A stretch of 64,000 nt of DNA, from assembly GCA_041648915.1 (NCBI GenBank), contig JBAZOC010000001.1, positions 10,801 to 74,800 on the forward strand. Reading direction: 5' to 3'. The stretch is from Candidatus Omnitrophota bacterium. Lineage in GTDB: Bacteria > Omnitrophota > Gorgyraeia > Gygaellales > Profunditerraquicolaceae. Below the pieces are notes generated by a model, which searched no databases, had not been told where the DNA came from, and saw only the letters and a program-made list of their open reading frames with translations. Of this stretch, positions 1 through 64,000 are shown in pieces. Position 1 is the first letter of the stretch. Each line of letters begins with the position of its first letter. A program made the translations under genes and the position numbers.

Positions 1-46
1 GAAGATAAAGAAGCCCGGGCAATAAGCCCGAAAACAGTTAAAGTAG

Positions 47-2516: not shown

Positions 2517-4306
2517 CGAAATTTCCCACGCATAACAAAAAATTAAAAGAATGGGTAGACCGGATGGCCAAGCTTTGCCAGCCGGAGGATATTGTCTGGA
2601 TTAACGGCTCAGCTACGCAGAGGGCAGCTTTAGAAAAAGAAGCCCTTGTACAGAGCGAATTAATTCAATTAAACCCGGAAGAACTGCCGGGTTGTTTTCT
2701 GCACCGTACTGCCGTTGATGATGTTGCCCGGACCGAACACCTCACTTTTATCTGTACCAAGAAAAAACATACTGCCGGCCCGACGAATAACTGGATGGCG
2801 CCCCAGGCCGCCTATAAAAAAGCTAAGGCTATATTCAAAGGCGCGATGGCCGGCCGTACGATGTATGTTATTCCTTTTTCCATGGGCCCTATAGGCTCAA
2901 GGTTCAGTAAGATTGGAGTTGAGCTGACCGACTCGCGTTATGTGGCTTTGAACATGCTGGTGATGACCCGCGCCGGCGAAGCGGTCTTAAGGCAGCTGGA
3001 AAAAGAAGATAATTTTACCAAGTGCCTGCATTCCAAGGCCCAGCTGGATATTAATAAGAGGCTGATCCTGCATTTTCCCGAAGATAATACCATTTGGAGC
3101 GTGGGTTCAGGCTACGGCGGAAACGTGCTCTTAGGAAAAAAATGTTTATCTTTACGTATTGCCAGTTATTTAGGGTTGCGGGAGCACTGGCTGGCTGAGC
3201 ATATGCTGCTTATGGGTATTGAAGAGCCTAACGGCCATATTGAATATATCGCCGCGGCTTTTCCCAGCGCCTGCGGTAAAACGAATCTGGCCATGCTTGT
3301 CCCTCCGGAAGGGCTGAAGGTAAAAGGTTATCGTATCTGGACGGTCGGTGATGATATATCCTGGATGCGCGTAGATTCAGACGGAGCACTTTGGGCAATT
3401 AATCCTGAAACAGGATTTTTTGGGGTTGCCCCCGGGACTAATTCCGAAACCAATCCCAATATGGTGGAAACCATCAGAAAGAATACCATTTTTACTAATG
3501 TCCTACTTAAACCTGATAAAACAGTCTGGTGGGAAGGTGCTGACGGCGAAATTCCTTCTGCTGGTATTGACTGGCGGGGCCGGCCTTGGGAGCCGGGATC
3601 AAAAGAGGCTAATGGAAAACCGGTTTTAGGTGCGCATCCGAACAGCCGCTTCACCGCTCCGGTTGCGAACTGCCCTTCAGTTTCATTCAGGTTAGAGCAG
3701 CATCACGGAGTACCCATATCGGCGATCGTCTTTGGCGGCCGCAGGCAACACCTGGCGCCTCTGGTTTATGAAACATTTAACTGGCAGCATGGGGTGTTTG
3801 CCGGCGCGACCATGGCCTCTGAACGTACAGCAGCCCAGGTCGGCGAGTTAGGCCAGGTGCGCAGAGACCCGATGGCCATGCTGCCATTTTGCGGCTATAA
3901 TATGGGGGATTATTTCCGGCATTGGTTGAATATGGGTAAACGTATGGCCAAGCCTCCGAAGATATTCCATGTTAACTGGTTCAGGACCGATGAGCAGGGG
4001 GAATTTTTATGGCCGGGGTTCAAAGAGAATTTAAGGGTCCTGGAATGGATCCTGGACCGCTGTAACTCCCGGGTGGGGGCAGCTAAGACCGCGATAGGTT
4101 ATGTGCCGTACCAGGCGGATATTGATATAACCGGCTTGCATTTAGCGCCGGGCGTATTGGAGAAATTACTTGAGGTGCGTAAAGATAACTGGCTGGAAGA
4201 ATTAAAAGGTATTAAGAGGTTTTTTAGCCAGTTTAAAAAAGATTTACCTTGCGAATTGTGGCAGGAATATAACGCCCTCCAGAAACGCCTTAAATCCCAT
4301 GAATAA
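2513..4306 (+). CDS. pckG: phosphoenolpyruvate carboxykinase (GTP)
   Basis: 597 aa. Has the kinase-1a loop AFPSACGKTN and GTP-PEPCK-like sequence along its whole length. Confidence 0.93.
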   Translation: MTKFPTHNKKLKEWVDRMAKLCQPEDIVWINGSATQRAALEKEALVQSELIQLNPEELPGCFLHRTAVDDVARTEHLTFICTKKKHTAGPTNNWMAPQAAYKKAKAIFKGAMAGRTMYVIPFSMGPIGSRFSKIGVELTDSRYVALNMLVMTRAGEAVLRQLEKEDNFTKCLHSKAQLDINKRLILHFPEDNTIWSVGSGYGGNVLLGKKCLSLRIASYLGLREHWLAEHMLLMGIEEPNGHIEYIAAAFPSACGKTNLAMLVPPEGLKVKGYRIWTVGDDISWMRVDSDGALWAINPETGFFGVAPGTNSETNPNMVETIRKNTIFTNVLLKPDKTVWWEGADGEIPSAGIDWRGRPWEPGSKEANGKPVLGAHPNSRFTAPVANCPSVSFRLEQHHGVPISAIVFGGRRQHLAPLVYETFNWQHGVFAGATMASERTAAQVGELGQVRRDPMAMLPFCGYNMGDYFRHWLNMGKRMAKPPKIFHVNWFRTDEQGEFLWPGFKENLRVLEWILDRCNSRVGAAKTAIGYVPYQADIDITGLHLAPGVLEKLLEVRKDNWLEELKGIKRFFSQFKKDLPCELWQEYNALQKRLKSHE

Positions 4307-5192
4307 AGAGGTAGTATTAAATACGGATTTTAAAGAGTTGCAGTTATTCCGTAAGGGTAAAGTAAGGGATGTTTATGATTTGGGGGATAAACTCCTGATC
4401 GTTTCAACGGACAGGATATCCTGTTTTGATGTGGTTTTGCCTTGCGGCATACCTTATAAGGGAAAAGTTTTAACCGCGCTATCCTGTTTCTGGTTTGATT
4501 TTCTAAAAAATATAATGCCTAACCATTATATTAGCGCGGATGTGGATAGCTACCCGCCGGAGTTAAAAAAATATAAAAATGCATTATCCGGGCGTTCCAT
4601 GCTGGTAACTAAGAGTAAGCCTTTTGCGGCAGAGTTTATTGTCAGGGGCTACCTGTCGGGCTCAGGATGGAAAGAATACCAAAAGCAACAGTCTGTTTGC
4701 GGGATAAAGCTTCCTGAGGGCCTTGAGGAATCCGCCAGGCTCCCGGAAGTTATTTTTACGCCTTCTACTAAAGCCGAGACGGGACATGATCAGAATATTA
4801 GCCGGGAATACATAGACAAGTTAATCGGTAAGGAAGCTGTGAATGAAATTGTCCGGTTAAGCGTGGATATTTATAAGCAGGCAAGCGAGCATGCTTATAA
4901 ACAGGGGATAATTATTGCCGATACCAAATTTGAGTTCGGCTTGCAGGATAACAAAATCATTCTCATTGACGAAGTACTTACTCCGGATTCCTCACGTTTT
5001 TGGCCGTTGGATACCTACGTTGCCGGCCAGGCCCAGTCTAGCTTTGATAAACAGTTTGTGCGCGACTATCTTGAGGGGTTAAACTGGAACAAGATTCCTC
5101 CGGCGCCTAGGCTGCCGGAGGAGATTATTTTAAAAACCTCCCAGAAGTATCTGGAGGCCTACCATAAGTTAACCGGAAGAGAGCTTAAATAA
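4299..5192 (+). CDS. purC: phosphoribosylaminoimidazole-succinocarboxamide (SAICAR) synthase
   Basis: 297 aa with SAICAR-synthase-like motifs GKVRDVY and ADTKFEFG. Confidence 0.92.
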   Translation: MNKEVVLNTDFKELQLFRKGKVRDVYDLGDKLLIVSTDRISCFDVVLPCGIPYKGKVLTALSCFWFDFLKNIMPNHYISADVDSYPPELKKYKNALSGRSMLVTKSKPFAAEFIVRGYLSGSGWKEYQKQQSVCGIKLPEGLEESARLPEVIFTPSTKAETGHDQNISREYIDKLIGKEAVNEIVRLSVDIYKQASEHAYKQGIIIADTKFEFGLQDNKIILIDEVLTPDSSRFWPLDTYVAGQAQSSFDKQFVRDYLEGLNWNKIPPAPRLPEEIILKTSQKYLEAYHKLTGRELK

Positions 5193-46098: not shown

Positions 46099-46170
46099 GG
46101 GCCCATAGCTCAGCGGTAGAGCAGGTGACTCATAATCACTTGGTCGGAGGTTCGAACCCTTCTGGGCCCA
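46099..46170 (+). tRNA. tRNA with CAT anticodon (elongator Met, or Ile2 if lysidine-modified)
   Basis: Hand-folded cloverleaf. Acceptor stem is GGGCCCA/TGGGCCC, D stem is GCTC/GAGC, anticodon loop is CTCATAA, T-loop is TTCGAAC. The G1-C72 pair argues against an initiator. No CCA is encoded. Confidence 0.88.
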
Positions 46171-46176
46171 GATTTA

Positions 46177-46253
46177 GGGCGATTGGCTCAGTTGGTTAGA
46201 GCGCCACATTCACATTGTGGAGGCCAGAGGTCCGAATCCTCTATCGCCCACCA
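46177..46253 (+). tRNA. tRNA-Val (CAC)
   Basis: Hand-folded cloverleaf. Acceptor stem is GGGCGAT/ATCGCCC, anticodon stem is CCACA/TGTGG with loop TTCACAT, T-loop is TCCGAAT. CCA is encoded. Confidence 0.88.
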
Positions 46254-47445: not shown

Positions 47446-47804
47446 GGGCAGGTAGAGTGTGGCCGCCCCAGGCTTTATAAGCCCAAGGGGAGGAAAGTCC
47501 GGGCTCCGGAGGATAACGCAGTAGGGTAATGCCTACCCGGCAGGTTAATCGCTTGCCGAGGATAAGAGCCACAGAGACGAGTAGCAGTCGAAGACTGCGA
47601 GATGAAACGCGGTAATCTCTGCGTGGAGCAAGGCGAATAGGAGATAAAGTCCCTTACCCAGGGCGCGCGCTCATCCGGCGCGTTATTTAAATCTCGGGTA
47701 ATAAGCTGCTTGAGCTCTGATAGCAACATCGGAGTCGAGAGGAATGGTCACTTTTCGATGCGCATACTCGCATCAAGACAGAACCCGGCTTATTTTATCT
47801 GCCC
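47446..47804 (+). ncRNA. rnpB: RNase P RNA (bacterial type A)
   Basis: The universal P4 5' strand GAGGAAAGTCCGGGCTCC is at 47490-47507. The 3' strand ACAGAACCCGGCTTA is at 47778-47792. The ends GGGCAG and CTGCCC can form P1. Length is about 359 nt. Confidence 0.9.
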
Positions 47805-47833
47805 TTTTTAAATTAAACATAAGGAGGAAACAA

Positions 47834-54293: not shown

Positions 54294-54946
54294 TTATTGC
54301 TATAGACGGTCCCGCAGGTGCAGGGAAAAGCACAGTCGCCAGACTGGTCGCCCAATCGCTCAATTTCCTTTATATCGATACCGGTGCTATGTACCGGGCA
54401 CTGACCCTGAAGGCCCTGGAAGAGAGGGTAGATATAAAGGATTCCCAAAAGGTAACCGAGCTTGCTTCTCATACCGAGATCAGTTTATTTAATGACCCGC
54501 AGGCTCCGCTGAAGGTGTTATTGGACGGACGCGACGTAACAAATGCAATCCGCCAGCCGCGCATTACGAGCTTTGTTTCGGAAATAGCCAAAATCAAAGA
54601 GGTGCGTAAAATAATGGTTGAACTGCAAAGAAAGCTGGGAAACGAGGGTAATGCCGTGCTGGACGGCCGCGATATCGGCACAGTGGTTTTCCCGGAAGCA
54701 GAAAAAAAGTTTTATATTGATGCGGATTTTAAAGAACGGGTAAACCGCAGGCATAAAGAAGCGCAGGGCTTGGGCCAGGAATTAACCTTAGAGGATGTAG
54801 CTGCGGATTTAGCCAACCGTGACAGGATAGATTCCGGACGCGTAGTCGCGCCGCTTAAGCAAGCCGAAGATGCTGTTTATGTGGATACGACAAAACTTAG
54901 CATTGAAGAAGTAGTTAATAAGGTCTTAGGTTTTATCCATGGATAA
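54290..54946 (+). CDS. cmk: cytidylate kinase
   Basis: 218 aa with IAIDGPAGAGKST and YIDTGAMYRA. Confidence 0.93.
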   Translation: MIIAIDGPAGAGKSTVARLVAQSLNFLYIDTGAMYRALTLKALEERVDIKDSQKVTELASHTEISLFNDPQAPLKVLLDGRDVTNAIRQPRITSFVSEIAKIKEVRKIMVELQRKLGNEGNAVLDGRDIGTVVFPEAEKKFYIDADFKERVNRRHKEAQGLGQELTLEDVAADLANRDRIDSGRVVAPLKQAEDAVYVDTTKLSIEEVVNKVLGFIHG

Positions 54947-56735
54947 AGCGCTTATTCGTAACTTCAGTATCATCGCCCACATAGATCACGGTAAATCTAC
55001 CCTGGCCGACCGTATTCTGGAATTAACCGGGGCGGTAGATAAGAGGCATAAAGGTACCCAGCTCCTGGATGATATGGATTTGGAGCGTGAGCGCGGAATT
55101 ACTATCAAGGCCTCCATGGTCAGGTTATTATACCGGGCGCATGACGCTAAAGATTATGTTTTAAATTTAATTGATACGCCCGGCCATGTGGATTTTACCT
55201 ATGAGGTTTCTAAATCCCTGGCTGCCTGTGAAGGGGCCGTGCTGGTAATAGATGCCAGCCAGGGGATCGAGGCCCAGACCGTAGCTAATTATTATCTGGC
55301 CCTGGAAAGCAACCTGGAGATCATTCCCGTTATTAATAAGATAGACCTTGTTGCCATAGATTTACCCAGAGTTAAAAAACAGATTAGCAGTGTTTTAGGC
55401 TATAAAGAAGAAGATATAATCTTGGCTTCGGCTAAAGACGGCAGCGGTATTGAAGCTATCCTGGAAAGGATAATCCAGGTAGTCCCGGCGCCCCAAGGCG
55501 CAGAGAACCATCCCTTAAAGGCCCTGGTTTTTGATTGCCGTTTTGACGCTTATAAAGGCGTGGTAGTTTTTGTCCGGATTACCGACGGAAATATTACAGC
55601 GCAAACGCAGCTTAAGATGATGCATTCAGGAGAGGTTTATAAAATTGAAGAACTGGGAGTCTTCCAAAATCTAAAATACTCGGCGGTAGATTCTTTGTCC
55701 TGCGGTGAAGTAGGTTATTTTACGGCGAATATCCGCGAGGCCAGGGAGATTATTATCGGCGATACGATAACCGATGTTAAAAACCCGTGTGCGGATGTCT
55801 TTCCGGGTTACCGCAGGCCTAAGCCGCTGGTCTTCTGCGGTATATACCCGGTTAATCCGGGCGATTTTCCGGAACTGCGCGACGCTATGGATAAATTAAA
55901 ATTATCCGATGCCTCCTTTGTCTTTGAGCCGGAAAATTCACAGTCTTTTGGTTCGGGTTTTCGCTGCGGTTTCCTGGGCCTTTTGCATATGGAGATTGTC
56001 CAGGAGCGCCTGGAGAGAGAGTATGATTTAAATTTAATCCTGACTGTTCCGAACGTAGTCTACCGGGTAATAAAAAATAGCGGAGAAATATTGGAAGTGG
56101 ATACGCCGGCCAAGTTACCTGCGGAGCAGGAAATCCGCCAGGCGCAGGAACCCTATGCCAGCTTGTTGATGATTATCCCCGTAGAATCAATAGAAGGAGT
56201 TTGTGATTTTACCAAGTCCAGGAGAGGGATCTTTCAGTCAAACGAGTACTTAAGCGAGGACCGGGTTAAGCTGACTTTTAGTATCCCGCTTTCCGAGATT
56301 ATCGTGGATTTTTATGACCGGATGAAATCCTTGACCAGGGGGTATGGGTCATTGGACTATGAGTTTAAAGATTACCTGCCTACAAAGCTGGTGAAATTAG
56401 ATATACTTTTAAACGGACAGATTTGCGATGCTTTTTCATCCCTGATGTGTAAGGATAGAGCATATTCGCGCGCTCAGGCTTTGTGCAATAAGCTTAAAGA
56501 GCTCATCCCGCGCCAATTATTTGAAGTTTCAATACAGGCGGCTGTGGGTAGCCAGATTTTAGCCGCGCAGAAGATCCGCTCGGTCGGTAAGCACGTTACG
56601 GCCAAGTGTTACGGCGGGGATATTACCCGTAAGCGCAAGCTTTGGGAAGAGCAGAAAAAAGGCAAGAAGCGCCTTAAACAATTCGGGAAAGTAGAAATTC
56701 CCCAGGAAGCATTTTTGGAGGTATTAAAGATATGA
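54939..56735 (+). CDS. lepA: translation elongation factor 4 (LepA)
   Basis: 598 aa. Has IRNFSIIAHIDHGKSTL, DTPGHVDF, NKID, and the LepA C-terminal domain. Confidence 0.97.
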   Translation: MDKALIRNFSIIAHIDHGKSTLADRILELTGAVDKRHKGTQLLDDMDLERERGITIKASMVRLLYRAHDAKDYVLNLIDTPGHVDFTYEVSKSLAACEGAVLVIDASQGIEAQTVANYYLALESNLEIIPVINKIDLVAIDLPRVKKQISSVLGYKEEDIILASAKDGSGIEAILERIIQVVPAPQGAENHPLKALVFDCRFDAYKGVVVFVRITDGNITAQTQLKMMHSGEVYKIEELGVFQNLKYSAVDSLSCGEVGYFTANIREAREIIIGDTITDVKNPCADVFPGYRRPKPLVFCGIYPVNPGDFPELRDAMDKLKLSDASFVFEPENSQSFGSGFRCGFLGLLHMEIVQERLEREYDLNLILTVPNVVYRVIKNSGEILEVDTPAKLPAEQEIRQAQEPYASLLMIIPVESIEGVCDFTKSRRGIFQSNEYLSEDRVKLTFSIPLSEIIVDFYDRMKSLTRGYGSLDYEFKDYLPTKLVKLDILLNGQICDAFSSLMCKDRAYSRAQALCNKLKELIPRQLFEVSIQAAVGSQILAAQKIRSVGKHVTAKCYGGDITRKRKLWEEQKKGKKRLKQFGKVEIPQEAFLEVLKI

Positions 56736-57310
56736 CGAAAAAAAAGAAATCGGCCTTACGCGAATGGATAGAGGCAGCGCTTTTTGCGGCTTTCCTGGCC
56801 TTCTGCGTTATCCGGCCGTTTATTGTGCAGGCTTTTAAAATTCCTACCGGTTCTATGCGCCCTACGCTCCTGGAAGGCGATTTAATCCTGGTGAATAAAT
56901 TTATTTACGGGGCCAAAATACCTTTTACGCATTTAAGGCTGCCGGCGCTAAGGCAGCCGAAAAGAGGGGATGTGATTGTTTTTATATATCCTGAGGATAA
57001 AAATAAAGATTTTATCAAAAGGTTAGTGGCCTTACCGGGAGAAACGGTAGAGATTAAAAGCGGCACGATTTACGTTGACTCCCGGCCTCTCGCGGAACCT
57101 GTTTTTAATAACCGGTATTATTATAACCGGGGAGACTTTGCCCAGGAATATGAAAAGGTCGTCGTGCCGCAAGACAGTTATTTTGTTCTCGGGGATAATT
57201 CCGGCTCTTCCAGGGATAGCCGCTATTGGGGGTTTGTGCCGGCAGACAATATTCTGGGCGAGGCAGTAGTTATCTACTGGCCGCCGCTACGCATAAGAGT
57301 GATTAAATGA
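56732..57310 (+). CDS. lepB: signal peptidase I
   Basis: 192 aa. Has GSMRPTL (catalytic Ser), KRLVALPGE and GDNSGSSRDSRYWG. Confidence 0.9.
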   Translation: MTKKKKSALREWIEAALFAAFLAFCVIRPFIVQAFKIPTGSMRPTLLEGDLILVNKFIYGAKIPFTHLRLPALRQPKRGDVIVFIYPEDKNKDFIKRLVALPGETVEIKSGTIYVDSRPLAEPVFNNRYYYNRGDFAQEYEKVVVPQDSYFVLGDNSGSSRDSRYWGFVPADNILGEAVVIYWPPLRIRVIK

Positions 57311-57870
57311 ATATCGCAAATAAAATCTCGACTTTCAGGATCCTGAGCGTCCCATTTTTTATCGCCGCTTTGGCTTACTATTCGCCGCAGAGAAATTATC
57401 TCAGGTTTGTCGCCTTAGGGATTTTCATTCTCGCGGCTATTTCGGATGCCGCAGACGGTTATATAGCCAGGAAATCAAAGCAGCAGTCCAAAGCCGGGCT
57501 TATCTTGGATCCTTTAGGAGATAAATTACTCTTAATGAGCGCGTTTATCTGCCTATGCGTTAACAGTAACCTGGCTTTAAGGTTTCCGCTCTGGGTCATT
57601 CTTGTCGTGGTCAGCCGCGATGTGATCATAATTTTAGGGGCGGTGGTCGTCTATATCGTAAAGCAAAACATTAATATTATACCTACCTATTGGGGTAAAT
57701 TAACGACCCTTTTCCAGATACTGGCGATTATCTCGGTTTTACTGCAATTAAAATTTTCTCCGTTATTTTGGTGGCTGGCGGTTATCCTTACGGTTATTTC
57801 AGGCGCAGTTTATATAAATAGGGGGTTTATTATACTTTATGCTTTGGACTCTCCTCGGAATAGTCATTAG
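57307..57870 (+). CDS. pgsA: CDP-alcohol phosphatidyltransferase (PgsA-like)
   Basis: 187 aa. Has the motif DAADGYIARKSKQQSKAGLILDPLGDK (DGx2ARx8Gx3Dx3D). Confidence 0.78.
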   Translation: MNIANKISTFRILSVPFFIAALAYYSPQRNYLRFVALGIFILAAISDAADGYIARKSKQQSKAGLILDPLGDKLLLMSAFICLCVNSNLALRFPLWVILVVVSRDVIIILGAVVVYIVKQNINIIPTYWGKLTTLFQILAIISVLLQLKFSPLFWWLAVILTVISGAVYINRGFIILYALDSPRNSH

Positions 57871-58462
57871 TTACTTAGTCGGCTCTATCCCTACGGCCTA
57901 TATTTTCGGCCGGATGATCAAGAAAACCGACATCCGTAAATTCGGCTCTGGCAATGTGGGGGCGACCAATGCCCTTAGGCTTTTAGGCAGGGGCTGGGGG
58001 TTAACTGTTTTGGGGCTGGATATCCTAAAAGGATTCCTGCCGGTAGTAATTTTATCCAGCGCCATAGGGGCCAGTGCTAATGTGCCTCTGGAATCATTCT
58101 GTATCATCCTTGGTTTAAGTTGTATCTGCGGGCATAACTGGACCATCTTTTTGCATTTTAAAGGAGGCAAGGGAGTAGCTACAACTTTAGGAGTTTTAGC
58201 GGGGCTCTCCGTCAAGATAGCCGGTTTAAAAATTATCTTGGGAATAACTATTTTAATCTGGTTAACCGTCTTTATTATCAGCAGGACCATTTCCTTAGCC
58301 TCGGTATTAGCGGCTTTAAGTTTTCCCTTATTAACGGTTTTATTCAGGCAATCTATGGGCTTAATTCTTATAGTGACGCTTTTAGCTGCATTCATCATCT
58401 TCCGCCACAGATCCAACATCAAAAGAATCCTCAGCGGCCAGGAGCCTAAACTAAACTTTTAA
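57839..58462 (+). CDS. plsY: glycerol-3-phosphate acyltransferase PlsY
   Basis: 207 aa with GSGNVGATN and KGGKGVAT. Confidence 0.92.
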   Translation: MLWTLLGIVISYLVGSIPTAYIFGRMIKKTDIRKFGSGNVGATNALRLLGRGWGLTVLGLDILKGFLPVVILSSAIGASANVPLESFCIILGLSCICGHNWTIFLHFKGGKGVATTLGVLAGLSVKIAGLKIILGITILIWLTVFIISRTISLASVLAALSFPLLTVLFRQSMGLILIVTLLAAFIIFRHRSNIKRILSGQEPKLNF

Positions 58463-58570
58463 AAATAAGCGTTTCTTTTGTCCTTTCCCCAAAGACCTCG
58501 CGCAACTAAAAAAACTTAATCAGGGTTGCTCAGGTTAAGAAACCGCTTTCTTTTTTGCCCCCGCTACCCC

Positions 58571-58599
58571 TTGAAAACACCGGGTTTGGCGTTTATACT
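58571..58599 (+). promoter_or_regulatory. sigma70 promoter candidate (TTGAAA-17 nt-TATACT)
   Basis: TTGAAA at 58571-58576 and TATACT at 58594-58599. This predicts a leader of about 100 nt to the ATG at 58704. Confidence 0.5.
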
Positions 58600-58650
58600 T
58601 TCTTAGAAATAGAGAGTATTCTATCCCCACCAGCCACAAGCAGGGGATGA

Positions 58651-58680
58651 GCCGGGTTATCTTAGTTTAGATAGCCCGGC
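58651..58680 (+). other. 12-bp hairpin in the leader of the 110-aa ORF
   Basis: GCCGGGTTATCT (58651-58662) pairs with AGATAGCCCGGC (58669-58680): 11 Watson-Crick pairs plus 1 G-U, with loop TAGTTT. No T-run follows. A second small stem, TCCCC (58624-58628) with GGGGA (58643-58647), lies just upstream. Confidence 0.6.
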
Positions 58681-58703
58681 GTAGATTCAAGGGGGTTGAA
58701 AAG

Positions 58704-59036
58704 ATGCGCGATCTATTGTTCAAAAATTTGACTTCTAATGACCGCAGGAGGAAAATAATTACCAGCTCTGAAGTTGTAGACAAACAGGGCGTCTGCAGCA
58801 CTATCCACCGGCATTTTATCTGTATGGTTAAAGAGATAGGGCCGGGGAATAATATTGCCAAGCCTGCGCCGTATCTTTATGTGCTTAAAAATCATAATAC
58901 CAGAGAACAAAGGGAAAAGTTTTTTTGTAAAATAAAGGGGAGTATTTGCGCGGTAAATAAAGGCAGATTATTTTTAATTGTCTTTATGCATTCTCTCAGG
59001 ATAGACCTCGTAGCTAAGCCGCAACAGGTATGCTGA
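58704..59036 (+). CDS. hypothetical small basic protein (110 aa, 5 Cys), no family recognised
   Basis: The ORF has a GGGGG RBS 8 nt upstream and its own promoter candidate. It occupies an otherwise non-coding 677-nt gap. I could not place the sequence MRDLLFKNLTSNDRRRKIITSSE... in any family. Confidence 0.45.
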   Translation: MRDLLFKNLTSNDRRRKIITSSEVVDKQGVCSTIHRHFICMVKEIGPGNNIAKPAPYLYVLKNHNTREQREKFFCKIKGSICAVNKGRLFLIVFMHSLRIDLVAKPQQVC

Positions 59037-59101
59037 TCGCAATCCCATTGTTTCTAACAGGTTACGACAATTTCTAGCTGCACTTAGCTAAAAAAATTTC
59101 G

Positions 59102-59129
59102 TTGACAAGGCGAAGAACTCATATATAAT
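59102..59129 (+). promoter_or_regulatory. consensus sigma70 promoter (TTGACA-16 nt-TATAAT)
   Basis: TTGACA at 59102-59107 and TATAAT at 59124-59129. The predicted TSS is only a few nt before the ATG at 59140, and no Shine-Dalgarno sequence is present. Confidence 0.55.
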
Positions 59130-59145
59130 AAAAATATATATGAGT
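59117..59145 (+). promoter_or_regulatory. perfect 11-bp inverted repeat spanning the -10 box and the start codon
   Basis: ACTCATATATA (59117-59127), a 7-nt spacer, then TATATATGAGT (59135-59145). The right arm contains the ATG at 59140. Confidence 0.6.
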
Positions 59146-61917
59146 AAAAAAATCCCTGTTTTAACCTTTCTGTTTTTCTTCCTTTTGCTGATTTTTCTTC
59201 TCCATGCTTCTTTGGCCTCTGGCGGGGGAGCTGAATATTTATGCGAGCTGGGGGTTAATTTCTATGGCCTGGGGAAATATGATAAGGCTTTAAGTGAATT
59301 TAACAAGGCTTTGATAGTTGACCCCGGGAACGAGGTTGCCAAGCAATACATCGCTGAAATTTTTAAACAAAATTTAGAGCCGCCGACGCCCGCCCCCCAG
59401 GCAAGAGCCCCGCAAGGCCCAGCGTCTGATTCCAGAGCCTTCAGTAAGGACGAGGTAATGGACCAAGCTATGGATAGACTCAAGCTGGAAAACTTACAGA
59501 GCGATGATGTGGCTAATTATAACTTTTCCGGCGCCCAGCCTTTTAAAAAAGATGAAAAACAAGGCTTGAAAGCCGGGCCGTTTAGGATTAGCGGAGAGAG
59601 CCGGATTGGTTTTGGCGTTACTGCGGATGATTTTATCTGGAAAAGGGCTAATTTCAATTTAAATGAACGCTCCCAAAGTTGGCGTATGAATTCCACTGCC
59701 GCGTTTAACCATAAATTCAATACTTATGATCCGGCAATCTATGATTCATTAAGTCTGAATGTTGACACCGACAACGAAGAAGGGTTTAATTTCCATACGA
59801 ACCTGACAGTTGACCCGTGGAGCTTTACAGGTAAGAGCAATAAGATTACGCTTACAGACGGTAGCGGTGACACTGCCGATATGCAGTTGTATTATTGGTC
59901 AAATACCGGTTATACGGTCGATAGTAACGTCTACACATCTAATGGCGATACCATCAGCCTTCCGGAAATGAAGGTCTATAATGGCGTAACTAAATCTACC
60001 AGCATTACCTCTAACCGTTATGGAGATACCTACACAATCCCTTCCTTAAAGATTGAACGCCAATTCCAGCCGTTACGCGAGATATGGCTGGACTATACTA
60101 ATGACCAGATGAAAATCCGGGCATTTCCTATGGGCTATCAGGACCAGGCTTATACTTCGGATGACCCCTTACATATTACTAATCACGGGATCTGGTGGAA
60201 AGACAGCAAATGGCTGCGTAAATATACCGCCGGGACTTATAACTCAACCGATACCACTCCCAGCTATACCCGGGGCCGCTGGGACGATTCGCTCTCCTTC
60301 TTGTCAAAAGATTCTACCGGCAAGTATCTGACGGCATTAAGAGGGTTCGCTTTCAATTTTCAACCCGATACCGTTACTTCTTTTGATGCCACTGTTGCTA
60401 CGCCTAAACATCTTTGGCAGGAATACGGTGAAGTGGATAATATTATAGCCGTGGCCAGGGCGAAACACTATTTTACGGATAACTTTATGGTCGGAGGCAC
60501 TTTTAGCAGCCGTACGGGTTTTGTCAGCGGTACCAAGCAAACGATCGACAGCCAGAATTTTGTGGGAGGTGTGGACTTGGGATATGAATTAGTGGATGGC
60601 TTAAAGGCCCAGGCCGAAGTTTTAATTTCTAATTCTAAATACGATATGAATAATTCTACTTATAAGACAGATAGCCGCGGTAACGCCTATTTTTTCTCAC
60701 TTGTCGGCCGCTATCCGCAGAAAAGCATTATGGATTTAAGTAACGGTTATGACAGTATAACTATGGATAAGGATGAAAGTTTTTTCTTAAAGACTAAACT
60801 CTATGGCGCCCATATGGATAAGGGCTTTGATTCGGCGCTTTCGGACTTTCATAATACCCGCCAGGATGTTTTTTGGTCAAGGCATATACATTTCCGCAAG
60901 GTCTTGGATTATTATGCTGCGGGCATGGAAAAATTCGGCAGCAATTGGGGCGAACTTAATGCTACCCGTATCGGAGACGGTATTGATGTCGGCAGGAATA
61001 CCTTAGGTTTTCGCATTGAAAGCATTTGGGATGAAAAGTTCGCCAACCTCCTGGATGTGCGTAACGTGCATAATACCAACGGCAAATTCGTTGAGAATGT
61101 AGTCCGTGATGAAGCTACCGTAAAAGTTACCGATAAGCTTACGGCTAAAGGCTTAGGCCTATACCAAAAGATGCATAAGACGGTCGGCGGGGTGGATCCG
61201 TTTGTATACGACGGGAACACCGGAGAGTATTATTTGAATGATGCCGTGAAAGACGGAGAAGACCCTTCGATCAAGACCGGCTCAATCGGTTTAAATTACG
61301 ATTTCTTCGATTGGTTAAGCTTGAACGGCGTGTATGAACGCACTAATGATTATACGATAGCCTATGATAATTTTCCGCAAAGCGTCCTGCTAAACAACAC
61401 TACGTTATACGGGACCTATTATAAGAACGGGGAACTTTACCGTTATATATTGCCTTTTCTTTATGATCAGGGTATTTTTCCTCAAGCCCCGTACGAATTC
61501 TATAATGTCTTCAAGTGCGGGTTAAGGATAGCGCCTACGGAAAAATTTGAAATATACGTTGATTATGCGTATAACGAATTTAAAGCCGCGTCATTAAATT
61601 CCGAAGGAATGAACCATGTGGGCCTCGAACTTGCTTATATGCCGACAAAGAAATTTGGCATGGTCTTTAAATATATTTACTCGCGTTCTCAGAATATTGA
61701 CCGTATGCTGGACGGGAACGACAAGATGTATAGCCACCATAATTTTTCCAATGAATTCAGGTATATGCCGTCAGAAAATGACGAGTTCATTATGCAGTAT
61801 GGCGTGGGAGATGCCTATTCTATCAGCAACCTTTCTTCGAATGACCCCTATGGCGGAACTACCCTTACCCTGGATACGCAGCATATCATCCGCGCTTATT
61901 ACCGCCACAAGTTCTAA
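59140..61917 (+). CDS. large outer-membrane beta-barrel protein with N-terminal TPR-like motif and Pro-rich linker
   Basis: 925 aa. Signal peptide ends ASLA-SG. A TPR-like segment reads GKYDKALSEFNKALIVDPGNEVAKQYI. The linker is PPTPAPQARAPQGP. Then comes about 800 aa rich in Tyr, Asn, Asp, Gly and Thr with an alternating pattern. The C-terminus YYRHKF ends in an aromatic residue, the OMP beta-signal. Confidence 0.6.
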   Translation: MSKKIPVLTFLFFFLLLIFLLHASLASGGGAEYLCELGVNFYGLGKYDKALSEFNKALIVDPGNEVAKQYIAEIFKQNLEPPTPAPQARAPQGPASDSRAFSKDEVMDQAMDRLKLENLQSDDVANYNFSGAQPFKKDEKQGLKAGPFRISGESRIGFGVTADDFIWKRANFNLNERSQSWRMNSTAAFNHKFNTYDPAIYDSLSLNVDTDNEEGFNFHTNLTVDPWSFTGKSNKITLTDGSGDTADMQLYYWSNTGYTVDSNVYTSNGDTISLPEMKVYNGVTKSTSITSNRYGDTYTIPSLKIERQFQPLREIWLDYTNDQMKIRAFPMGYQDQAYTSDDPLHITNHGIWWKDSKWLRKYTAGTYNSTDTTPSYTRGRWDDSLSFLSKDSTGKYLTALRGFAFNFQPDTVTSFDATVATPKHLWQEYGEVDNIIAVARAKHYFTDNFMVGGTFSSRTGFVSGTKQTIDSQNFVGGVDLGYELVDGLKAQAEVLISNSKYDMNNSTYKTDSRGNAYFFSLVGRYPQKSIMDLSNGYDSITMDKDESFFLKTKLYGAHMDKGFDSALSDFHNTRQDVFWSRHIHFRKVLDYYAAGMEKFGSNWGELNATRIGDGIDVGRNTLGFRIESIWDEKFANLLDVRNVHNTNGKFVENVVRDEATVKVTDKLTAKGLGLYQKMHKTVGGVDPFVYDGNTGEYYLNDAVKDGEDPSIKTGSIGLNYDFFDWLSLNGVYERTNDYTIAYDNFPQSVLLNNTTLYGTYYKNGELYRYILPFLYDQGIFPQAPYEFYNVFKCGLRIAPTEKFEIYVDYAYNEFKAASLNSEGMNHVGLELAYMPTKKFGMVFKYIYSRSQNIDRMLDGNDKMYSHHNFSNEFRYMPSENDEFIMQYGVGDAYSISNLSSNDPYGGTTLTLDTQHIIRAYYRHKF

Positions 61918-61918
61918 C

Positions 61919-64000
61919 TTATTCCATATAGATATCAATCATATCAAACTGGCAGGACCTTGCGCGTTGTGCGTAAGGTGAGGGGATAACGGAGGAGTGG
62001 ATTACCACAGGTTTCTCTTTATTCCTAAGGACAATTTGCATAATCTGCGCCGCATTTTTTCCAAAGGTATTCTTTCGTCCGGGATTATAATAAGTCACCC
62101 TAATCTTGCTCAAGAAATTAAAACTGTATTCGCCTTTTTTGTTGAACAGCCAACCGCTCAGCCGGGGGCTGAATTTTAACTTTAGCTCGTTATGATCTAA
62201 GAAGAAAGGGGCTAAGCCCGTATTCATCGTCAGCCATAGCTCTAAGAATTCAGCAGTTGAGCCGGAGAGCCGCGCGACAAAACCGTTTCCGTGCAGTTTA
62301 GGATCGCTAAACGCGCTGCTTACCAGGAAAGATGAATTTTCCAGAATACTTCTTCCATAAATTTTAGGTTTCTGAAAAGGTATCAGCGTATCTTTAAACT
62401 CCGCGTAAAATTCTTCATTCAGCCCGGCTTTTAAGAGTTCCAGCAGGTATTTATATTCCATATGCAGCCAGATAGATTCATTTTCCAGCCAGCCAGGAGC
62501 AAATACCCGGCACCTGCCGATTTCTTCGGACATTGCGTTTAAGGAGGCGGTGACCTTATACATCTTAAGTTTTTTGTCAAAAAGGGCGCTCTGTTTTGTC
62601 CCCTGGTGGATGAGCCTGGCCTGAGCCGGGTTGCCTGCCAGGCGCAGGGCGTGCACCTGGGTCTCTAAAAATAAAGGGAGACGGGTTTGTCTGAATTTAA
62701 GCGGTTTTATAAAATGCTCATTTAAATTTTCATAGGCAACTGCCTCGTTTATAAAATACCCGTAGTAAACCTTTTCTTTCTCATTCCAGGCTTGGGATAT
62801 CCCCAGCTCAATCTTTTCTAATAACGTATCAAGAATACCCGTTATTTGGGAAGCAGGGATTTCTGATTCTTTTCCGCTCACCCCCATTTTTGTCATACTG
62901 CGGTAGTTTTCCTTCAGGGAATGCGTTTGGTCCCACCAGGTATAATCATCCATGGTTTTATTCAGGTAAGCGCAGGTCAGGCCGCTGAGCTGGCTTAAGA
63001 AAGAGTAGATCTCCTCGCAGACGCTTAGTTTTTCCAATCCGGTTTTTTGCAGGGCCTCTTTAATAAAGAGCGCCAGGCGTTTTAATTCCAACGTCTCGCA
63101 GAGCGATGAACCAAAGAGCGCGGGCAAGCCGTTAAGCGCATCAAACCAGTTGGGTTTGTTTGCTTCCATCTCTACGCCTACGCCGAAAGGGTCAAGCGAA
63201 GCGAATTTATTGCTCAGGAGGCAGAGTAGCTTATTAGCCAGCGTTGTGCTATAAATTTCACCCTGGCCGAATTGTGTCCTGACAATATGGGGAAGCTCTT
63301 TACGTTTGCGCAGCATTTCTTTTTTGGCGTTGTCGCAGGTGACCGCGTGCAGCTGGCGGGCTTTAGCGTTATAGAGGACGCATTTTTCGTTACGCGGCCT
63401 GACCACTTCGGAATTATCAAAAAATGTAAAGTTCCGGTTAGCAAAGACTATTTCGCTTAATTTTTCCGGGTAAAGCTTCAGGTAGCTATCCAGCAGGTCA
63501 AGGTTATAATGCCAGTGGTCGCTCCAGTAGCCTTCGCCGTGTTCAGCCTCGTGGGTTTTTAGCGCCGAGGAGATGACCAGGTCCAAAAATTCATCATAGG
63601 AAATATTGAGCGGGATCTTCCTTTCTTCAATAAACAGGATGACTTCACCCGGGGTAAAGGGTTTGCTGAGGAAGGTAATTATACGCTCGAGGTTTTTCGC
63701 AGCGCAGGATGATTGCAATTTTGTTTTAAGGCCGCTGCTGTCCTTAAGGATGAAACTTGTGCCCTTGACCACAAGCGGGTTAAAGCCGTCCAACTGGATT
63801 AGATTGAAAAGACTGAGCACATTTTCATCTTTTATTTCAGGGTGAAACCATATATCGTTCCTGCGGTTCTGATTTAAATCCCGATAGTTGCCATTGCCTT
63901 GAGAAAAGTAAGTAGGTGCAAGCTGGAATTTATTATAGTCGCGTTCAAGATCGCCGTGTTTACGGGAATACAGGTAAAAGGTCTGGCCGGATTTGAAAGT
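61919..64000 (-). CDS. large (alpha/alpha)6-barrel glycoside phosphorylase/hydrolase-like protein (GH94-superfamily-like), 5' end outside window
   Basis: The reading frame stays open to position 64000. The M at 63820 in the ORF track is an internal GTG. Upstream in-frame residues read ...QGNGNYRDLNQNRRNDIWFHPE.... The motifs GNYRDxNQN, GYWSDHWHYNLDL, NWFDALNG and ENESIWLHMEY resemble cellobiose-phosphorylase-type catalytic domains, from memory. Confidence 0.5.
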   Translation of the reverse strand, partial: TFKSGQTFYLYSRKHGDLERDYNKFQLAPTYFSQGNGNYRDLNQNRRNDIWFHPEIKDENVLSLFNLIQLDGFNPLVVKGTSFILKDSSGLKTKLQSSCAAKNLERIITFLSKPFTPGEVILFIEERKIPLNISYDEFLDLVISSALKTHEAEHGEGYWSDHWHYNLDLLDSYLKLYPEKLSEIVFANRNFTFFDNSEVVRPRNEKCVLYNAKARQLHAVTCDNAKKEMLRKRKELPHIVRTQFGQGEIYSTTLANKLLCLLSNKFASLDPFGVGVEMEANKPNWFDALNGLPALFGSSLCETLELKRLALFIKEALQKTGLEKLSVCEEIYSFLSQLSGLTCAYLNKTMDDYTWWDQTHSLKENYRSMTKMGVSGKESEIPASQITGILDTLLEKIELGISQAWNEKEKVYYGYFINEAVAYENLNEHFIKPLKFRQTRLPLFLETQVHALRLAGNPAQARLIHQGTKQSALFDKKLKMYKVTASLNAMSEEIGRCRVFAPGWLENESIWLHMEYKYLLELLKAGLNEEFYAEFKDTLIPFQKPKIYGRSILENSSFLVSSAFSDPKLHGNGFVARLSGSTAEFLELWLTMNTGLAPFFLDHNELKLKFSPRLSGWLFNKKGEYSFNFLSKIRVTYYNPGRKNTFGKNAAQIMQIVLRNKEKPVVIHSSVIPSPYAQRARSCQFDMIDIYME

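Follow-up and report, generated by a model that had tools for sequence, protein, structure and literature searches.

Among the closest described systems to the locus considered here are autogenous leaders such as the L4/S10 attenuator and the "cold box" in the 5′ untranslated region (UTR) of cspA. The locus is the 677-nucleotide (nt) gap at positions 58463-59139 of a 64,000-nt stretch of DNA, hereafter "the window", from a Candidatus Omnitrophota bacterium (contig JBAZOC010000001.1), and it comprises a small open reading frame (ORF) for a protein of 110 amino acids (aa) together with a promoter and a structured leader. What is known of the biology of the Omnitrophota, which are ultra-small, widespread, and so far uncultivated, comes almost entirely from genomes; unknown conserved families are common in uncultivated phyla. 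In common with the autogenous leaders, the locus combines a small basic protein with a strong promoter, a conserved upstream element, and, near the beginning of the transcript, a conserved and structured 5′ leader; control would likewise be exerted, putatively here, through a terminator hairpin in some lineages and through the ribosome-binding site (RBS) in others. One difference is that the small-ORF protein is neither a ribosomal protein nor a cold-shock domain, and its autoregulation is a candidate one.

Parallels can also be drawn with the TRAP/trp leader, PyrR, and LicT-RAT, where a GC-rich hairpin and a U-run lie ~40 nt before the regulated ORF, and with TRAP in particular, since the candidate effector is again a small all-beta protein. 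Unlike those systems, the leader described here has no GAG/UAG repeats, no antiterminator/terminator alternative has been identified in it, and about half of the leaders, including that of the window, have no U-run; moreover, control by the candidate effector would fall on the gene that encodes it and not on a biosynthetic operon. The coat-operator hairpins of the leviviruses MS2 and PP7 resemble the locus in pairing an antiparallel beta sheet, the presumed RNA-binding surface, with a hairpin that has invariant loop bases. The PP7 coat dimer is among the better but weak structural matches to the predicted protein (TMq 0.45), and with E = 0.02 and a TM-score below 0.5 it is not a fold match; in addition, the coat proteins have C-terminal helices, and there is no viral context here. 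The layout of promoter, RNA, terminator, and small ORF is shared with the ToxIN type III toxin-antitoxin system, from which the locus differs in having no RNA repeats, a fixed housekeeping position, phylum-wide vertical inheritance, and no similarity to ToxN. Finally, orphan riboswitch candidates of the hairpin type in Rfam are likewise short motifs that are specific to one gene family and have a variable expression platform, but the motif here matches none of the 4227 Rfam models, its conserved core is very small, and there is no ligand candidate. In its architecture the locus is of the known autoregulated leader or attenuator type; the protein and the RNA both fall outside all described families.

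The small gene and its protein product

The gap is bounded by the stop codon of plsY (58462) and the start codon of a 925-aa gene (59140), and the one substantial ORF inside it lies at 58704-59036 on the + strand. A search of 5.8 billion proteins returned 635 homologues of the 110-aa protein. Clustered at 90% identity, the family numbers 635-663; an exhaustive profile search found 141 clusters at 50% identity. The best 120 listed homologues are 105-137 aa in length with 65-93% identity; among those listed, every named one is a "hypothetical protein" from a Candidatus Omnitrophota/Omnitrophica genome. When a profile of the diverse alignment was run against the same 5.8-billion-protein set, the best 120 listed matches were close relatives only. 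The family is essentially confined to Candidatus Omnitrophota. Species-representative loci were collected for 80 species, of which 65 are labelled Omnitrophota/Omnitrophica, the others carrying generic or odd labels with the same synteny. The frame is intact at all 80 loci and encodes 108-118 aa, the median ratio of nonsynonymous to synonymous substitution rates (dN/dS) is 0.085 for the 52 pairs with unsaturated dS, and entropy at codon positions 1, 2, and 3 is 0.85, 0.60, and 1.50, respectively. The composition of the ORF is ordinary for its region. The homologues, the intact frame, and the low dN/dS identify ORF 58704-59036 as a genuine gene under strong purifying selection. The initial annotation of the locus had named a frame that is not preserved, or a lack of purifying selection, as what would count against a gene, and on both points the outcome favours one. 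The same annotation had described the gene as an "orphan", a label contradicted by the 141 clusters and by the synteny of the gene across the phylum.

The position of the gene is also conserved. In 70 of the 71 species with enough sequence to judge, plsY lies at most 900 nt upstream, and it is still the upstream neighbour of family members with only 19-25% identity to the window protein; one distant member is located between plsY and gpsA. The gene order before the small ORF is lepA-lepB-pgsA-plsY. What follows the small ORF is more variable: the 925-aa gene, annotated as encoding an outer-membrane protein (OMP), in 37 of 70 species, a large minus-strand gene directly in 13, and something else in 20. 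The initial annotation had paired the small gene with the downstream OMP gene, but given that plsY is upstream in 70 of 71 species and the OMP gene downstream in only 37 of 70, the meaningful linkage is to plsY. A fixed place beside plsY across the phylum indicates that the protein must do something central.

The encoded protein has a mass of 12.7 kDa and an isoelectric point of 9.98, with 20 K+R residues against 8 D+E, and by inspection it has no hydrophobic N-terminus or signal peptide. It could not be placed in any family from the sequence, and database searches bear this out. The best Pfam match to the 110-aa protein is DUF7181, with E = 0.21 and 12 bits against a cut-off of 27; a Pfam search with 46 diverse members gave a single sub-threshold match to PBECR3; NCBIfam, PHROGs, and PADLOC returned nothing consistent; and a search of PDB sequences gave no E-value below 0.88. 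Nothing was found in the literature on the protein or on any Omnitrophota RNA motif. The residues conserved across the family are basic, aromatic, and polar: R2, F6, K7, N8, S11, E23, G29, R36, H37, F38, P56, K62, F73, K78, G79, S80, F94, H96, and L98. The strongly basic character noted in the initial annotation is confirmed, and the nucleic-acid-binding role proposed there is plausible. The metal site that it suggested has fared less well. The cysteine pairs CSTIHRHFIC and CKIKGSIC are indeed present in the window protein, which has cysteines at positions 31, 40, 75, 82, and 110, but most close relatives have R at position 31, the consensus of the wider family has Y at 40 and 82, and the 46-member alignment contains no conserved Cys column and not the two pairs of conserved Cys/His ligands of a zinc-ribbon-like regulator. 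Since the cysteine pairs are not conserved among relatives, a metal site is not supported.

An AlphaFold2 model based on the 46-sequence diverse alignment has a pLDDT of 95.2 and a pTM of 0.79, and all five models score 93-95; it supersedes an earlier run on 26 close sequences, in which one of five models was confident and Foldseek was uninformative. The modelled fold consists of six long antiparallel strands (residues 2-10, 16-27, 30-45, 57-65, 70-85, and 88-104) and no helix. Foldseek comparisons were made against the PDB and BFVD libraries only, with E < 1e-3 and a TM-score > 0.5 taken to define a fold match. The best E-value in the PDB was 1.7e-3, with no listed match above a TMq of 0.45. 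In BFVD the best E-value was 1.1e-3, and the sole match with a TM-score above 0.5 was to a 258-aa target (TMq 0.55, E = 0.02). The predicted fold is therefore, at the level of a model, without a solved counterpart in PDB or BFVD. Three specific relationships were considered and rejected. A cold-shock domain was suggested by the resemblance of KGSICA...IVFMHS to RNP1/RNP2, but hhalign gave a probability of 0.2% for the family profile against E. coli CspA, and there was no match to PF00313. An internal duplication of two three-strand halves is visually suggestive, but the N half aligned to the C half with a probability of only 0.3% in hhalign. A BECR/RelE-like RNase, of the alpha+beta fold of RelE, barnase, and colicin E5 in which an N-terminal helix packs on a beta sheet, was dismissed because only one of 46 members has the sub-threshold PBECR3 match, the model is without helix, and neither RelE nor barnase appeared in the Foldseek results.

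Promoter, upstream box, and leader RNA

All elements upstream of the small ORF in the window lie on the + strand. A scan identified a sigma-70-type promoter, TTGAAA-17-TATACT, at 58571..58599 (10/12 matches), with a predicted transcription start near 58606. A sigma-70-like pattern, TTGnnn-16..18-YAKAMT, is present upstream of the ORF in 69 of 74 species. Upstream of the promoter in the window is a 14-bp near-palindrome, AGAAACCGCTTTCT, at 58538..58551, centred at about −61.5 relative to the predicted start, and its core is conserved across species. The core, CGYTTWC, accompanies 66 of the 69 promoters at a distance of 26 nt (59 species) or 27 nt (7 species) from the −35 element, and many species have a fully palindromic version of the box, AGAAAGCGCTTTCT, that matches on both strands. 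The combination of box and promoter occurs once only in the 64-kb window, and other box matches in related loci are chance matches within coding sequence. A general promoter element was considered as an explanation for the box and rejected, as the box is unique to the small-ORF promoter in the window and in the loci. It is retained in two distant members (L086 and L208) that do not have the RNA motif. A Shine-Dalgarno-like GGGGG, read from the sequence, is located at 58691..58695, 8 nt before the ATG.

Between the predicted start and the ORF are two hairpins, P1 and P2. P1 (58624..58647) has a UCCCC/GGGGA stem, with arms at 58624-58628 and 58643-58647, and a 14-nt loop that opens with the conserved ACCAGCCAC. 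P2 (58651..58680) is an inverted repeat of 12 bp with a 6-nt loop; its arms, 58651-58662 and 58669-58680, form 11 Watson-Crick pairs and one G.U pair. The fold energy of the predicted 101-nt leader is −37.4 kcal/mol (z = −4.57), a stability that none of 200 shuffles attains, and the opposite strand is less stable at −30.7 kcal/mol. Both hairpins are conserved in relatives. The P1 consensus, derived from 49 distinct sequences, is CCCC-aCcAGCCAc...GGGG, with upper-case bases present in at least 90%; its 4-bp stem is 97% paired and nearly invariant, and in some species an extra hairpin is inserted into the loop. Across species, the P2 stem, GCCGGGUUGCC/GGCAACCCGGC, measures 11-13 bp; its loop varies in length from 4 to ~60 nt and frequently includes AGGAGGAA.

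Evidence that P2 is maintained as a structure comes from a covariance model built on six compact examples and from pair statistics on an alignment of 50 leaders. The 11 pairs of P2 are 99.4% paired, six of them change on both sides, and none of 500 shuffles reaches any of the observed measures; slid registers of P2 are only 25-61% paired. Numerous G.U pairs in P2 are compatible with the + strand only. By the test of compensatory change, applied to these aligned leaders, P2 is a conserved secondary structure. Full-length matches to the covariance model occur only directly upstream of the ORF and on the same strand.

The motif is present in some form at ~60 of 75 species-level loci, and a P2 module with a preceding GCCGCGG is found upstream of a member with ~22% protein identity (L207). 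Additional evidence for a tie between motif and gene came from an exact-pattern scan of public metagenomes, which returned 119 matches. The ORF lies directly downstream in 82 of these, five are ended by the contig, and 31 fall by chance in unrelated DNA (55-72% GC) and are not accompanied by P2. The remaining one (L182) is a true motif without the ORF, so that motif and ORF occur together in 82 of the 83 true matches with enough downstream sequence to judge. L182 is a natural deletion of the small ORF in which the RNA has been left intact. None of the 4227 Rfam models matches positions 58300-59300 with E < 0.6, and none matches in 15 related loci; the leader region also contains no tandem repeats. 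The loop sequence CCAGCC(A/G)CG resembles the 530 loop of 16S rRNA (CCAGCAGCCGCGG), a likeness that needs a 3-nt deletion and serves as a lead only. A pseudoknot or tertiary partner for the P1 loop was sought by mutual information, which gave one extra pair, between loop position 9 and P2 pair 67/123. The loop-9 variants come, with exceptions, nearly all from a single clade, and the correlation is therefore read as phylogenetic. A small ORF in the P2 loop behind AGGAGG was also rejected, as inspection of the loops revealed no start codon.

The resemblance of P2 to a terminator differs between lineages. In the window, P2 is followed by GCGUAGAUUC, there is no T-run after either hairpin, and a terminator scan of the region finds none. 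Among 121 leaders with both P1 and P2, by contrast, 58 have a U-run after P2, with the ATG a median of 39 nt further on, and most of these have P2 loops of more than 20 nt. The median distance of 39 nt leaves too little room for a second promoter, so lineages with a U-run would be able to express the gene only by read-through of P2. The other 63 leaders, including that of the window, have no U-run, and the distance from P2 to the ATG is 6-92 nt (median 22). Two species (L054 and L061) have P1 only, and the 3′ arm of this hairpin is the Shine-Dalgarno sequence. In the minimum-energy fold of the window leader, the CCCC of P1 pairs with the GGGGG of the RBS rather than with its P1 partner. An anti-Shine-Dalgarno model built on this pairing was rejected because GGGG is present in the RBS of only 10% of relatives and duplex energies barely beat those of shuffles.

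The initial annotation had described the gap, the ORF, the promoter, the RBS, and both hairpins, and all are present at the positions given there. Its proposal of a separate transcription unit with its own promoter and a two-hairpin leader agrees with the conservation of these elements in relatives. Its statement that the hairpins are not terminators holds for the window; for relatives it is not supported, in light of the 58 leaders with a U-run.

Proposed autogenous control and competing explanations

These data lead to the tentative proposal that the leader acts in cis, either as an attenuator or as an element that controls translation, and that the basic product of its own gene probably binds it. 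Recognition would depend on the invariant P1 loop, perhaps together with the sequence-conserved P2, and the element would act on termination in some lineages but on the initiation of translation in others. Where P2 is followed by a U-run, its read-through would constitute attenuation. In the species with P1 only, the use of the Shine-Dalgarno sequence as the 3′ arm of P1 points to translational control. In the window species, two alternative partners would be available to the CCCC of P1, namely the GGGG of the hairpin and the GGGGG of the RBS. The most likely effector is the encoded basic beta-sheet protein, which would act on the P1 loop and/or P2 to give autogenous control, and which would then be an RNA-binding protein.

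Several points weigh against this proposal. L182 keeps the box, promoter, P1, P2, and U7 run but has lost the ORF; a motif without the ORF means that RNA and protein can be separated and that the RNA may have a role independent of the protein. Moreover, no leader could be recognised in ~15 of 75 species in which gene and promoter are present. The near-invariance of P1 renders covariation silent, such that it neither supports nor refutes the stem. No conserved antiterminator pairing was found, and the alternative pairing of CCCC with the Shine-Dalgarno sequence in the window is not conserved. The palindromic promoter box equally well suits a DNA-binding autoregulator. Lastly, the structural comparison was confined to PDB and BFVD.

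The separability of RNA and protein at L182, where the box, promoter, P1-P2, and U7 run persist without the ORF, is what would be expected of a stand-alone small RNA, trans-acting or protein-sequestering, that happens to stand in front of an ORF expressed by terminator leakage. The U-run after P2 in 58 of 121 leaders is consistent with this explanation, as is a further RNA unit, described below, that runs from promoter to terminator close to the gene in 14 loci and shares the GCCRCG box and the AGCCGGRUUGnC terminator hairpin. It is nonetheless unlikely, given that the RNA is simply a 5′ UTR in the 63 of 121 leaders, including the window, that have no U-run, and that all true motifs found except L182 precede the small ORF. 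The tie of the motif to one gene family also fits a riboswitch, in which the P1 loop would sense a small molecule or ion and P2 or the RBS would serve as the expression platform. This reading would account for the invariance of single-stranded nucleotides, and a single motif that is terminator-coupled in some lineages and RBS-adjacent in others shows variation typical of riboswitches. The protein's function would then relate to the ligand, possibly in glycerol-3-phosphate/phospholipid metabolism, given that plsY, and in one lineage gpsA, are neighbours. Against this, the conserved part is very small, with a 4-bp stem and ~9 loop nucleotides, neither a pseudoknot nor a multistem junction is apparent, no alternative pairing between the putative aptamer and the terminator was found, and P2 is conserved in sequence as well as in pairing, as would seldom be the case for a simple expression platform. 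The sequence evidence thus makes a riboswitch a rather doubtful candidate.

A different explanation places recognition in the DNA: the protein would be a transcription factor or nucleoid protein bound to the palindrome at its own promoter, the leader hairpins would only stabilise the mRNA, and the protein may possibly control membrane-lipid genes. Consistent with this, AGAAAsCGCTTTCT is dedicated to the small-ORF promoter at a fixed 26-27 nt from the −35 element, the box is kept in the distant members that lack the RNA motif (L086 and L208), the protein is basic, and the adjacency of plsY is invariant. However, neither a helix-turn-helix nor any other known DNA-binding motif is present in the protein, Foldseek gave no match to a DNA-binding beta protein, the 64-kb window lacks a second box, such as one close to the lepA-plsY genes, and an invariant P1 loop and a covarying P2 would be left unexplained. 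The box resembles LacI/CcpA-type operators, a likeness that is a lead rather than a test, and one that would imply a separate regulator. On balance, such a DNA-binding role is unlikely. The version in the initial annotation, in which a small regulator would bind metal through its cysteines and be functionally paired with the OMP gene downstream, retains hardly any probability: the five cysteines of the window protein (C31, C40, C75, C82, and C110) and the OMP gene downstream in 37 of 70 species are offset by R in place of C31 in most close relatives, by Y at positions 40 and 82 in the wider family, where no Cys is invariant, and by the 33 of 70 species in which the OMP gene is not downstream. 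A type III toxin-antitoxin-like pair, composed of promoter, RNA, terminator, and a small basic RNase-like toxin, is also very improbable. The order of promoter, structured RNA, terminator-like hairpin, and small ORF would match, and one distant member, P0190, has the sub-threshold similarity to the predicted RNase family PBECR3 of Pfam, with a score of 23.4 bits where the cut-off is 30. In contrast, there are no tandem RNA repeats; the gene has a fixed, apparently single chromosomal position phylum-wide, with strong purifying selection and ordinary composition; a model without helix is unlike a barnase/RelE-type fold, of which Foldseek gave no match; and 45 of the 46 members have no PBECR match, with no PADLOC match of note.

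Autogenous control of the leader by the small-ORF protein, if true, would establish a new class of RNA-binding protein; if not, the leader would be a new orphan riboswitch or small-RNA candidate. In a more far-reaching version, which should be treated as a long shot, the protein would found a new RNA-binding fold that recognises the GCCRCG box and AGCCGGRUUGnC hairpin both in its own leader and in the stand-alone small RNA found nearby in some genomes, and the two would form a phylum-specific sponge/target circuit anchored to the first phospholipid step (plsY, gpsA). As a target, the locus is unusually well defined and open to testing, with phylum-wide synteny, strong constraint, a confidently predicted fold without a solved analogue, a dedicated box, and a covarying motif absent from Rfam. 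It provides two concrete objects, the 12.7-kDa protein and a leader RNA of ~60 nt, as candidates for entry into Pfam and Rfam.

Related loci and neighbouring features

In genomes that do not have the OMP gene at this position, a second RNA unit of ~95 nt, running from promoter to terminator, is found downstream of the small ORF. It was located at L046 (~4390-4530), L053 (~3590-3730), L018 (~2050-2200), L034 (~4745-4905), and L082 (~2790-2895), and further loci are L029, L038, L041, L110, L148, L155, L158, L159, L171, and L179. The promoter of the unit is CTTGACAAA-17-TATACT, and the RNA consists, in order, of AAUCCGGC, a hairpin whose loop is GGAGGUA, UGCCACGG, a spacer, and AGCCGGAUUGAC...GUCAAUCCGGC, after which there is a U-run. 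This unit and the leader have in common the GCCRCG box and the sequence of the terminator hairpin, and the 5′ AAUCCGGC could pair with the 5′ arm of the terminator. The second RNA unit has no Rfam match and is absent from the window.

Other related loci vary the arrangement in different ways. At ~5100-5400 of L182, a metagenome contig, the order is lepB-pgsA-plsY, box, promoter, P1-P2 with the U7 run, a second terminator hairpin, and the OMP gene. In a distant member (L087, 5600-5800), the 400-nt spacer between plsY and the ORF holds two direct copies of a ~65-nt unit, ..AACCTG(A/G)CAAATCTTCC(A/G)C(G/A)C..GATCCGCT.CGG..GAAA.CA.GTTAGA.. In L053 (3240-3570) and L034 (4372-4710), the small ORF is followed by an ORF of ~110 aa in which the PilZ-type motifs RRxxxR and D-I-S-A-N-G are visible by eye.

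Upstream of the gap in the window are the genes for LepA (54939-56735), signal peptidase I (56732-57310), a CDP-alcohol phosphatidyltransferase (57307-57870), and PlsY (57839-58462; Pfam G3P_acyltransf, 1.8e-52). The next gene after the small ORF is the TPR-containing 925-aa OMP gene that starts at 59140. It has a perfect consensus promoter, TTGACA-16-TATAAT, at 59102-59129, and an 11-bp perfect inverted repeat, ACTCATATATA/TATATATGAGT (59117-59127 and 59135-59145), covers both its −10 element and its ATG. The gene has no Shine-Dalgarno sequence, and its predicted start would leave a 5′ UTR of only ~4 nt, so that its mRNA would be nearly leaderless. The minus-strand gene at 61919-64000, listed at 633 aa, has a frame that is open up to the window edge, and its homologues are ~1070-1085 aa in length with no Pfam domain; the open frame and the longer homologues indicate that the gene is cut by the end of the window rather than truncated. 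This gene is conserved beside the OMP gene or the small ORF in many species. Across the whole window, the only Rfam matches are to RNase P RNA and two tRNAs: a bacterial RNase P RNA of class A at 47446-47808 (151.9 bits) and adjacent genes for tRNA-Met (CAT) and tRNA-Val (CAC) at 46099-46253.

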